Of a stretch of DNA of 64,000 nucleotides, positions 14,325 through 15,140 are shown in pieces. A model generated the notes under the pieces. That model was not told the origin of the DNA. It made no database searches and worked only from the letters and a program-made list of their open reading frames with translations. A program made the position numbers and the translations under genes. The DNA lies in the NCBI RefSeq assembly GCF_044324785.1, contig NZ_CP172127.1; one strand, given 5' to 3'. The DNA is from Escherichia coli. GTDB taxonomy: Bacteria; Pseudomonadota; Gammaproteobacteria; Enterobacterales; Enterobacteriaceae. Position 1 is the stretch's first letter; each line of letters opens with the position of its first letter.

Positions 14325-15140
14325 ATGAGCAGACATGCAACAGATTGGGCCTGGGAGACAGATCCAGGTAGCTCGTCATTAAAGCTCATACTGCTCTCGA
14401 TGGCTGACAGAGCCGATGAATATAACCTCTGCTACCCCAGCATAGAACGCCTCGTTAAAGACACTTGCCTGAATAAAAAAACCGTGCAGGCCGGACTTAT
14501 ATCGCTCATGAAAATGGGGCTTATTTCAGATACCGGGGAGAGAAAGGGAGCGACAAAAAGAGTGCGGGTTTTCTCTCTTAATATAACCAAAAACGGGAAC
14601 ATTAAAGGCAACCGAGAGGGGGGCAATGAACCCGAAAACGGTAATGTTACCGAAAACGGGAATATACCCAAAAACGGGATGTTGAATGATCCCAAAAACG
14701 GGATGTTGAATGATCCCAAAAACGGGATCCAGAACCAGTCATATAACCAGTCATTTAACCAAGAGAGGGAGAGCAGGACAAAAAACGGGGATTCTGTGCA
14801 TCATGACCCCGGCGCAAACAACGCCGTGATGAATAACTTTGTTCCTCCTGGTGGGCCAGGGCAATTAGGCAAATTTGTCATGCATGAACAATGGCAGCCA
14901 TCAGATGACTTTCTTCGGAAAAGCTCATTGCAGGGGATCTACCTGGACAGTCTGCCAACGGCACAGGAACTTGCAGAGTTCAGAATTTACTGGATGGCTG
15001 AGGGTAAGGCATACCATCAGGCACAGTGGGAGCAGAAGCTGGCAAGGCGGCTGCAGATTAGCAGACAGAAGCAATCAACATTACCTGATAACAACGTTCC
15101 GCACTGGAACAGCCCTGAAGCGTGGGAGGATTTCTTGTGA
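14325..15140 (+). CDS. replication initiator, lambda O-like
   Basis: 271 aa; N-terminal HTH-like region (LKLILLSMADRADEYNLCYPSIERLVKDT...); tandem iteron repeats inside the gene; followed by a P-like gene. Confidence 0.7.
   Translation: MSRHATDWAWETDPGSSSLKLILLSMADRADEYNLCYPSIERLVKDTCLNKKTVQAGLISLMKMGLISDTGERKGATKRVRVFSLNITKNGNIKGNREGGNEPENGNVTENGNIPKNGMLNDPKNGMLNDPKNGIQNQSYNQSFNQERESRTKNGDSVHHDPGANNAVMNNFVPPGGPGQLGKFVMHEQWQPSDDFLRKSSLQGIYLDSLPTAQELAEFRIYWMAEGKAYHQAQWEQKLARRLQISRQKQSTLPDNNVPHWNSPEAWEDFL
14587..14728 (+). repeat. iteron array (six or more copies of CC(C/G)AAAACGG(G/T)A), putative origin of replication
   Basis: Copies at about 14587, 14631, 14651, 14668, 14692 and 14716, the last three spaced 24 bp apart; AT-rich stretch follows. 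Confidence 0.6.

Follow-up and report, generated by a model that had tools for sequence, protein, structure and literature searches.

In the 64-kilobase (kb) stretch of Escherichia coli DNA analysed here (the window), which represents a prophage of the phiV10 type (phiV10/epsilon15), the replication initiator gene (14325-15140, + strand) contains an array of repeated sites, or iterons. We propose that these sites, at 14581-14731, are probably the initiator-binding part of the vegetative replication origin of this phiV10/epsilon15-type prophage, placed within DNA that also codes for the linker of the initiator protein. Judged from sequence comparisons, the origin very probably follows the plan of phage lambda in a different initiator family. 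An initial annotation of this DNA had proposed an origin of the lambda type inside the initiator gene, and the predictions that could be examined at the sequence level were borne out, except for the AT-rich flank, which gave a weak signal only. The likeness to lambda rests on the location of the array in the linker, the P-like neighbouring gene, the conservation of the DNA in three reading frames, the dyad symmetry of the sites, their co-segregation with the N-terminal domain (N-domain) of the initiator, and a natural chimera found in Edwardsiella phage GF-2.

Iterons in the initiator gene and their conservation

The number of iterons was determined by searching both strands of the window for the pattern CCVAAAACGGKA, and 100 dinucleotide-preserving shuffles of the window served as the control. 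Six matches were obtained, all on the + strand (14587, 14632, 14650, 14668, 14692 and 14716), and none was found outside the array on either strand. Shuffled windows had a mean of 0.04 matches and not one of the 100 reached six. The six exact cores are packed into 141 base pairs (bp; 14587-14727), and all of them share one reading frame. In the initial annotation, six or more copies of CC(C/G)AAAACGG(G/T)A had been described at a spacing of about 20-24 bp. The count of six was retained, the third base proved to be A or G instead of C or G, and the spacing had to be replaced by measured start-to-start distances of 45, 18, 18, 24 and 24 bp. Tandem Repeats Finder (TRF) delimited an array of 18-bp period at 14630-14679 (three copies) and one of 24-bp period at 14667-14728 (three copies, with units matching at 100%).

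Extended to 22 bp, the sites are found at 14581-14602 (iteron 1, ATATAACCAAAAACGGGAACAT), 14626-14647 (iteron 2, ATGAACCCGAAAACGGTAATGT), 14644-14665 (iteron 3, ATGTTACCGAAAACGGGAATAT), 14662-14683 (iteron 4, ATATACCCAAAAACGGGATGTT), 14686-14707 (iteron 5, ATGATCCCAAAAACGGGATGTT) and 14710-14731 (iteron 6, ATGATCCCAAAAACGGGATCCA), with no strand assigned. Iteron 1 is an outlier located 45 bp upstream that fits the 22-bp consensus, with A at position 1 and T at position 22. Neighbouring sites at 18-bp spacing have their outer 4 bp in common, which applies to iterons 2 and 3 and to iterons 3 and 4. Iteron 5 contains the dyad ATCCC-N6-GGGAT and belongs to a 24-bp unit that is gained or lost among relatives. 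A possible seventh iteron, ACAAAAAACGGGGA (~14779-14792), was dropped; it is read as TKNG, TKSG, TKTG or TKAG among near-identical relatives.

Several other features coincide with the array. An antisense open reading frame (ORF) at 14432-14719 (95 amino acids, aa) was taken as a by-product of the repeats. On the minus strand (14675-14718), adjacent 24-bp units give GGGAT...ATCCC hairpins followed by a T-run, with a score like that of an intrinsic terminator. The two terminator-like hairpins, at 14718-14699 and 14694-14675, were taken as by-products of adjacent dyads and the A-tract, and they could hinder antisense transcription across the putative origin. The core of iterons 2 and 3, ACCGAAAACGGT (14626-14665), is identical to the E2 site found at the origin of human papillomavirus (e.g. 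PMC10095481). This identity is a coincidence, but E2 offers a further example of a dimeric origin-binding protein that reads a CCG-N4-CGG palindrome with an A-tract spacer.

The initiator has 271 aa and consists of a winged-helix N-domain, a disordered linker and a DnaT-like C-terminal domain (C-domain). Pfam searches returned HTH_36 at aa 18-67 (E 1.8e-10) and the DnaT DNA-binding domain at aa 184-252 (E 1.1e-15), with no match to Rep_3 or RepA_N, and the protein was assigned to phrog_1032, "replication initiation protein" (E 1.4e-108). An AlphaFold2 model was built from an alignment of 63 homologues. The N-domain (aa 1-89, encoded by 14325-14591, + strand), which is the presumed reader of the iterons, was modelled with a predicted local distance difference test (pLDDT) score above 90, with helices at 3-11, 17-29, 40-47 and 51-63 and a beta-hairpin wing at 67-74/80-85. 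Foldseek searches with this domain retrieved generic winged-helix regulators and, weakly, the N-domains of plasmid RepA proteins (4pql/5kbj; RepA_N, E ~0.1). Residues 90-180, encoded by the iterons, the 12-mers described below and the stretch downstream of them, are predicted to be disordered (pLDDT <50). The repetitive linker peptide announced by the initial annotation, GNEPENGNVTENGNIPKNGMLNDPKNGMLNDPKNGIQNQ, was indeed present in the translation of ORF 14325-15140. The C-domain (aa 181-267, encoded by 14865-15125, + strand) is a predicted bundle of three helices (pLDDT 82-94) and the presumed interface with single-stranded DNA (ssDNA) or the helicase loader.

To separate the DNA sequence from the peptide that it encodes, we turned to 80 diverged loci from IMG/VR, whose N-domains are 54-86% identical to that of the window; 71 non-redundant genes from this set were used for counts of the core motif. 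CC[AG]AAAACGG occurred 184 times within nucleotides (nt) 240-480 of the 71 genes and 5 times in the other 670 kb (both strands), a ~1450-fold enrichment in the linker region. The core motif was read in all three frames (99, 59 and 26 cases), and in 57 of the 71 genes at least two frames were used within the one gene. A single DNA motif thereby yields the peptides TQKR, PKNG/TENG and PKTE. The dominant spacings in the homologues are 17/18 and 23/24 bp, of which 17 and 23 are not divisible by three and shift the frame. When the site was relaxed to CC-N6(AT-rich)-GG, which takes in variants such as CCCAAATTTGGG, CCCAAAATTGGG and CCGTTAACGG, each of 72 arrays (72/72) was found to contain 4-9 sites, at a density of 21.3/kb vs 0.95/kb.

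Conservation also extends beyond the core. Among 95 distinct sites, position 1 is A in 94 and position 22 is T in 75, whatever the frame, and the consensus is a 22-bp dyad, A-N4-CCC-R-AAAA-C-GGG-N4-T, in which positions 1/22, 6/17, 7/16 and 8/15 form complementary pairs. This use of three frames, frequently inside a single gene, means that the DNA, not the peptide, is under selection. The linker tolerates such frame changes since aa 90-180 are predicted to be disordered; as a disordered tether it accepts the peptide that results, whose sequence follows for the most part from the DNA sites.

The iterons were also found to travel with the N-domain. Phages with the same N-domain family carry them at the same place, as in Vibrio H20 (seven iterons), Acinetobacter AP22, E. 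coli PPompW and Burkholderia Bcep176; in the latter, which has a GC-rich genome, they are spaced at 17 bp and read in three frames. Where the N-domain has been swapped or has diverged highly, the repeats are lost or changed. Moraxella Mcat8 (N-domain 41% identical) has other repeats at the same position (GGGGGTACAATTTTGCA, ~8 copies, gene nt ~290-510), as does Pseudomonas phi2 (N-domain 32% identical; GCAGGAAATGCACCC, ~6 copies, gene nt ~240-370). In phages ZX5 and Tyrion, a DnaT-like C-domain and P are still present, the N-domains are unrelated, and iterons of the window type are absent. The ZX5 initiator gene contains two copies of a 28-mer with the palindrome GTAACGC-N5-GCGTTAC (locus positions 1949-1976 and 2158-2185, 209 bp apart), which are candidate binding sites of its alternative initiator. 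The block formed by the N-domain and the iterons was found with three kinds of partner: a DnaT-like C-domain and P, a lambda-O-type C-domain and P, or a C-domain of another kind with a gene for a DnaB-type helicase after it. The gene downstream of the initiator in homologues encodes P or a DnaB-type helicase.

Among close relatives, we compared 80 nearly identical copies from E. coli, whose N-domains show 99-100% identity. These have 4-8 cores and differ by whole 18- or 24-bp units; phage BP9, for instance, has one 24-bp unit fewer. Nucleotide diversity (pi) was calculated for the 46 collinear alleles only and amounted to 0.0049 in the iteron cores, 0.0311 in the spacers within the array and 0.0026 in the 12-mers, the lowest value in the initiator gene.

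Comparison with phage lambda and other origins

In phage lambda, binding of O to the iterons builds the O-some, the AT-rich tract beside them is unwound, and the origin is situated centrally within gene O (PMC7466680). Four ATCCCTCAAAACGAGGGA-like iterons are annotated in the lambda record; they occupy nt 349-433 of O, and an A-rich tract comes after them. The window resembles lambda in several respects. In both, the array lies in the initiator gene just past the DNA-binding N-domain (nt 349-433 in lambda, nt 257-407 in the window). The iterons of both are dyads with the same arms, the same polarity and an A-tract centre on the coding strand (ATCCCTCAAAACGAGGGA in lambda, ATCCCAAAAACGGGAT in the window), and MAFFT aligned the two arrays in register. 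Both arrays are followed by a presumed unwinding segment, and the next gene is a translationally coupled P-type loader. Iteron number varies in both groups, with 4 vs 6 in lambda and the phages encoding Shiga toxin (Stx) and 4-8 in the relatives of the window.

The differences concern the details of this plan. The half-sites of the window are 3 bp closer together than those of lambda, and there are six sites at 18/24-bp spacing, some of them with 4 bp in common. The N-domain is of the HTH_36 and not of the Phage_rep_O type, and the C-domain is DnaT-like and not lambda-O-like. The flank of the array consists of tandem 12-mers and a purine-rich stretch (47-60% AT), whereas lambda has an A-rich tract of ~45 bp.

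A further comparison was provided by Edwardsiella phage GF-2, a natural chimera with an N-domain of the window family, four iterons and 12-mers. From aa 137 on, its initiator shares 62% identity with aa 156-299 of lambda O, and the next gene is a P gene of the lambda type. The DNA junction (…CGTC[C/A]GAGAATTCTG…) falls immediately right of the AT-rich tract of lambda. The position of this junction implies that the N-domain, iterons and 12-mers substitute exactly for the N-domain, iterons and AT-rich tract of lambda.

Other initiation systems were considered as well. Iteron plasmids (RK2 TrfA, pPS10 RepA, F RepE; staphylococcal RepA_N) use winged-helix Rep proteins and have direct repeats beside an unwinding element, with repeated 13-mers in several of them. 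The window shares with these plasmids the winged-helix initiator and the tandem direct sites for initiator binding, which are putative in the window. The iterons of plasmids usually lie between genes and lack dyad symmetry, and Rep binds them as a monomer, whereas the array of the window is intragenic and dyad-symmetric. Origins inside initiator genes are also known from P22 (gene 18), phi80, 82, SPP1 (gene 38) and lactococcal phages, where the repeats are located in the initiator coding sequence and belong to other initiator families with other repeat sequences. None of these phages turned up when the phage collection was searched for relatives of the N-domain.

The remaining comparison is with E. 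coli DnaT (primosomal protein I), whose ssDNA-binding domain is ~50% identical to the last 85 residues of the initiator. The C-domain matched the DnaT chains 9zbt, 6aep and 4ou6 of the PDB (phmmer, E ~1e-20), and Foldseek superimposed it on 4ou6, the DnaT84-153-ssDNA structure, with a template modelling (TM) score of 0.82-0.85 at 50% identity. In contrast, the first ~84 residues of DnaT are unmatched, the DnaT chains covering initiator aa 180-265 only, and a winged helix and an iteron-coded linker stand where the N-terminal part of DnaT would be. The gene also differs in its setting, since it is part of a prophage replication module with P and does not encode a host restart factor. Annotations as "primosomal protein" cover one domain of the initiator only.

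Proposed origin opening and alternative readings

Tandem 12-mers (AACCAGTCATAT / AACCAGTCATTT / AACCA; TRF period 12, 2.4 copies; no strand assigned) follow the last iteron at 14733-14761. Three copies are present in phiV10, and in almost every homologue the last iteron gives way directly to 2-4 tandem units of 12-13 bp, of the forms GAAYCAGTCATT / GAATCTnTCAAT / GAACAGTAG / GAACCGTCA. Variants in homologues include GAATCAGTCATTA-GAACCAGTCATT and GAATCTATCAATG..., and Bcep176 has four copies of GAACAGTAG. In the homologues, the short motif GAA[CT][CA] reaches a density of 42/kb over the 60 nt past the last iteron vs 5/kb elsewhere. Its units are spaced at 12 or 13 bp, and two frames are used about equally, so that NQSL and EPVI are encoded by the same DNA. 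The 12-13-mers extend from Escherichia phages to those of Vibrio, Acinetobacter, Burkholderia and Pseudomonas. They are also maintained in phi2, where repeats of the GAACCGTCA type are still present after the differing iterons. Because they are kept in phi2 while the iterons differ, it is unlikely that the 12-13-mers are recognised by the residues that give the N-domain its specificity.

The 12-13-mers are thus positioned where lambda has its AT-rich tract and are a candidate unwinding element or second binding element. A bolder proposal, which we put forward only tentatively and regard as possible rather than probable, is that they form a conserved, sequence-specific origin-opening element, read in single- or double-stranded form by the initiator or a host factor and replacing the non-specific AT-rich tract of lambda. 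If so, the widespread HTH_36 initiator family would stand for a phage origin in two parts, composed of specificity iterons and a common opening module, and comparable to the 13-mers of DNA unwinding elements (DUEs) or the DnaA-trios of plasmid and chromosomal origins. No convincing likeness between the 12-mers and an IHF site, a DnaA box or an oriC 13-mer is known.

The 12-mers are followed by a purine-rich stretch (14762-14799, + strand; AAGAGAGGGAGAGCAGGACAAAAAACGGGGA...), which contains the non-conserved "seventh copy" and whose membership in the origin is uncertain; 14760-14799 is 75% purine and 47% AT. The least stable 40-mer of the initiator gene, according to nearest-neighbour stability, is located at the upstream edge of the array (14568-14607, 70% AT). 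For an AT-rich unwinding element right of the array, the stability and AT profiles gave a modest signal only. The statement in the initial annotation that AT-rich DNA follows the array is weakly supported, with 60% AT at 14720-14759 and 47% in the next 40 bp.

The model that we infer for initiator binding, the unwinding site, helicase loading and origin activity would be the following. Dimers of the winged-helix N-domain would bind each 22-bp dyad, and the five close-packed sites together with the outlier would build an O-some-like complex on A-tract-bent DNA, which would become distorted. The duplex would open beside the array, with the 12-mers and the purine-rich stretch (14733-14799) as the best candidate in place of the AT-rich tract of lambda. 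The DnaT-like C-domain would bind the exposed single strand and/or recruit the P-like loader (15137-15922), and the loader would deliver host DnaB.

Several observations weigh against the interpretation of the array as an origin of the lambda type. AT-richness beside the array is only modest: the 60% of 14720-14759 corresponds to the 90th percentile of window 40-mers, and the family mean next to homologous arrays peaks at 67% over 20 bp. The intergenic segments 13677-13716 and 15956-15995 are far more AT-rich (80-82%, 99.9th percentile). The diversity contrast among the 46 alleles rests on few variable sites and counts as supporting evidence only, and iteron 1 is not strictly conserved, with TKKG alleles in some close relatives and a C>A change at 14594 in 4 of the 46. 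The initiator had no Pfam match to Phage_rep_O (PF04492) at E <= 0.01, a family that lambda O itself matches at 5.7e-36, and BLASTP of the initiator against lambda O was not significant. Comparison of the family alignments by hhalign paired initiator aa 39-89 with O aa 71-121 (51 columns) at 58% probability only. This match spans the helix-turn-helix and the wing and ends at the first iteron in both proteins, and both proteins match phrog_678 and phrog_345; the sequence evidence for a relationship between the N-domain and lambda O is suggestive only. Finally, the searchable literature yielded no experimental report of binding or origin firing in the phiV10/epsilon15-type group.

The first of these points bears on an alternative that we consider unlikely, though the least unlikely of those weighed: the repeats could be genuine initiator sites with a mainly regulatory role (autoregulation, titration/handcuffing or exclusion of related phages through replication), and opening and helicase loading would take place elsewhere, e.g. 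in AT-rich intergenic DNA. Near the module, the DNA with the highest AT content and low stability is indeed intergenic, in the two segments named above, against ~60% AT in the flank of the array, and iterons of plasmids and secondary chromosomes have control roles as well. However, the intergenic AT-rich regions are without iterons and carry the palindrome TACCT-N3-RGGTR, which is typical of operators and promoters. GF-2, moreover, keeps the iterons and 12-mers precisely where lambda has its iterons and AT-rich tract, and the block of N-domain, iterons and 12-mers moves as a unit among helicase systems, as expected of a self-contained origin.

It is decidedly improbable that the sites are bound by another factor, of the host or the phage, for recombination, packaging or transcription control. 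The 12-13-mers persist in phi2 where the iterons differ, and they at least may have a reader other than the N-domain that determines specificity. The iteron sequence, however, changes with the N-domain and vanishes where an unrelated N-domain has taken its place, neither the remainder of the prophage nor that of the window contains the motif, and both the placement and the form of the sites match the O-binding iterons of lambda. Least credible, and strongly disfavoured, is the reading of the repeats as nothing more than a peptide linker (PKNG/TENG) of low complexity, prone to slippage, whose DNA has no role of its own: the region does encode a predicted disordered linker, unit number does change by in-frame 18-/24-bp steps among close relatives and the six copies of the window do share one frame, but homologues read the motif in three frames as the unrelated peptides TQKR, PKNG and PKTE, often within one gene, 17-/23-bp spacings are common among them, the bases at +/-11 bp and the dyad symmetry are conserved irrespective of frame, and polymorphism is lower in the cores than in the spacers.

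Prophage context and significance of the probable origin

The segment holding the initiator gene is 98% identical at the DNA level to phage phiV10 (genus Uetakevirus, epsilon15-like; gene gp43), whose record describes the initiator as a "putative primosomal protein" and has no origin annotated. The replication module was found in 537 of 5426 complete E. coli genomes (~10%). Immediately downstream of the initiator gene lies the gene for the lambda-P-like helicase loader (15137-15922, + strand; Pfam Phage_lambda_P PF06992, E 1.4e-56; phrog_109 "P-like helicase loader", E 1.9e-91). It starts with a GTG that overlaps the initiator stop codon (GTGA), which is the start annotated for phiV10 gp44, and a second possible in-frame GTG is located at 15122. 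A CI-like repressor gene (minus strand) and a Cro/CII-like gene are found 5' of the initiator.

Directly 5' of the initiator there is an ORF of 66 aa (14109-14309, + strand; phrog_1081, unknown function) with a CxxH...CxxC-like motif, which is kept in phiV10 (gp42) and epsilon15 (p40) and may belong to the replication operon. The cro-like gene is separated from the replication genes by a strong hairpin resembling a terminator (AGACCGCC-ATCC-GGCGGTCT followed by a T-run; 13980-13999, + strand), and a second terminator is annotated after P in phiV10, corresponding to ~15928-15947 (+ strand) in the window. Given these hairpins, transcription into the putative origin may need antitermination or a separate promoter. 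The palindrome TACCT-N3-RGGTR gave 15 strand-matches (~11 sites) in the window vs 0.28 expected, at 6775, 12918, 13630, 13678, 14015, 15961, 16023, 23432, 37982, 40935 and 42359. Six of these sites are grouped in AT-rich intergenic DNA around the immunity and replication genes, and the palindromes are probably operators or regulator-binding sites of the prophage.

The array also affects how the gene is represented in databases. A search with the 87-aa N-domain showed that many database products of the initiator gene are truncated or frame-shifted inside the iteron region, and the assembly of O157 typing phage 9 has a run of N at ~2400-2500 of the locus, in the iteron region. The iteron repeats thus seem to break assemblies and gene calls, and the array accounts for the initiator gene being a hotspot where length is polymorphic and gene calls are truncated.

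In the searchable literature on the phiV10/epsilon15 origin, the motif and HTH_36/DnaT iterons, we found no description of an origin of the window type. Its plan is a known one, the lambda paradigm, with a DnaT-like C-domain, shorter dyads and 12-13-mers replacing a plain AT-rich tract as the variant features, and the paradigm of phage replication initiation is left unchanged. The module is carried by phiV10-type phages that convert or type O157 and its annotation goes no further than "primosomal protein / DnaT-like", an origin feature being absent. The present analysis gives the epsilon15/phiV10 group, and many phages of Vibrio, Acinetobacter, Edwardsiella and Burkholderia, a concrete, if putative, pair of origin and initiator sites. 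It also offers an example of a peptide as the passive read-out of DNA sites, the same sites being read in three frames, and the natural domain-swap chimeras provide material on how initiator specificity and helicase recruitment combine.

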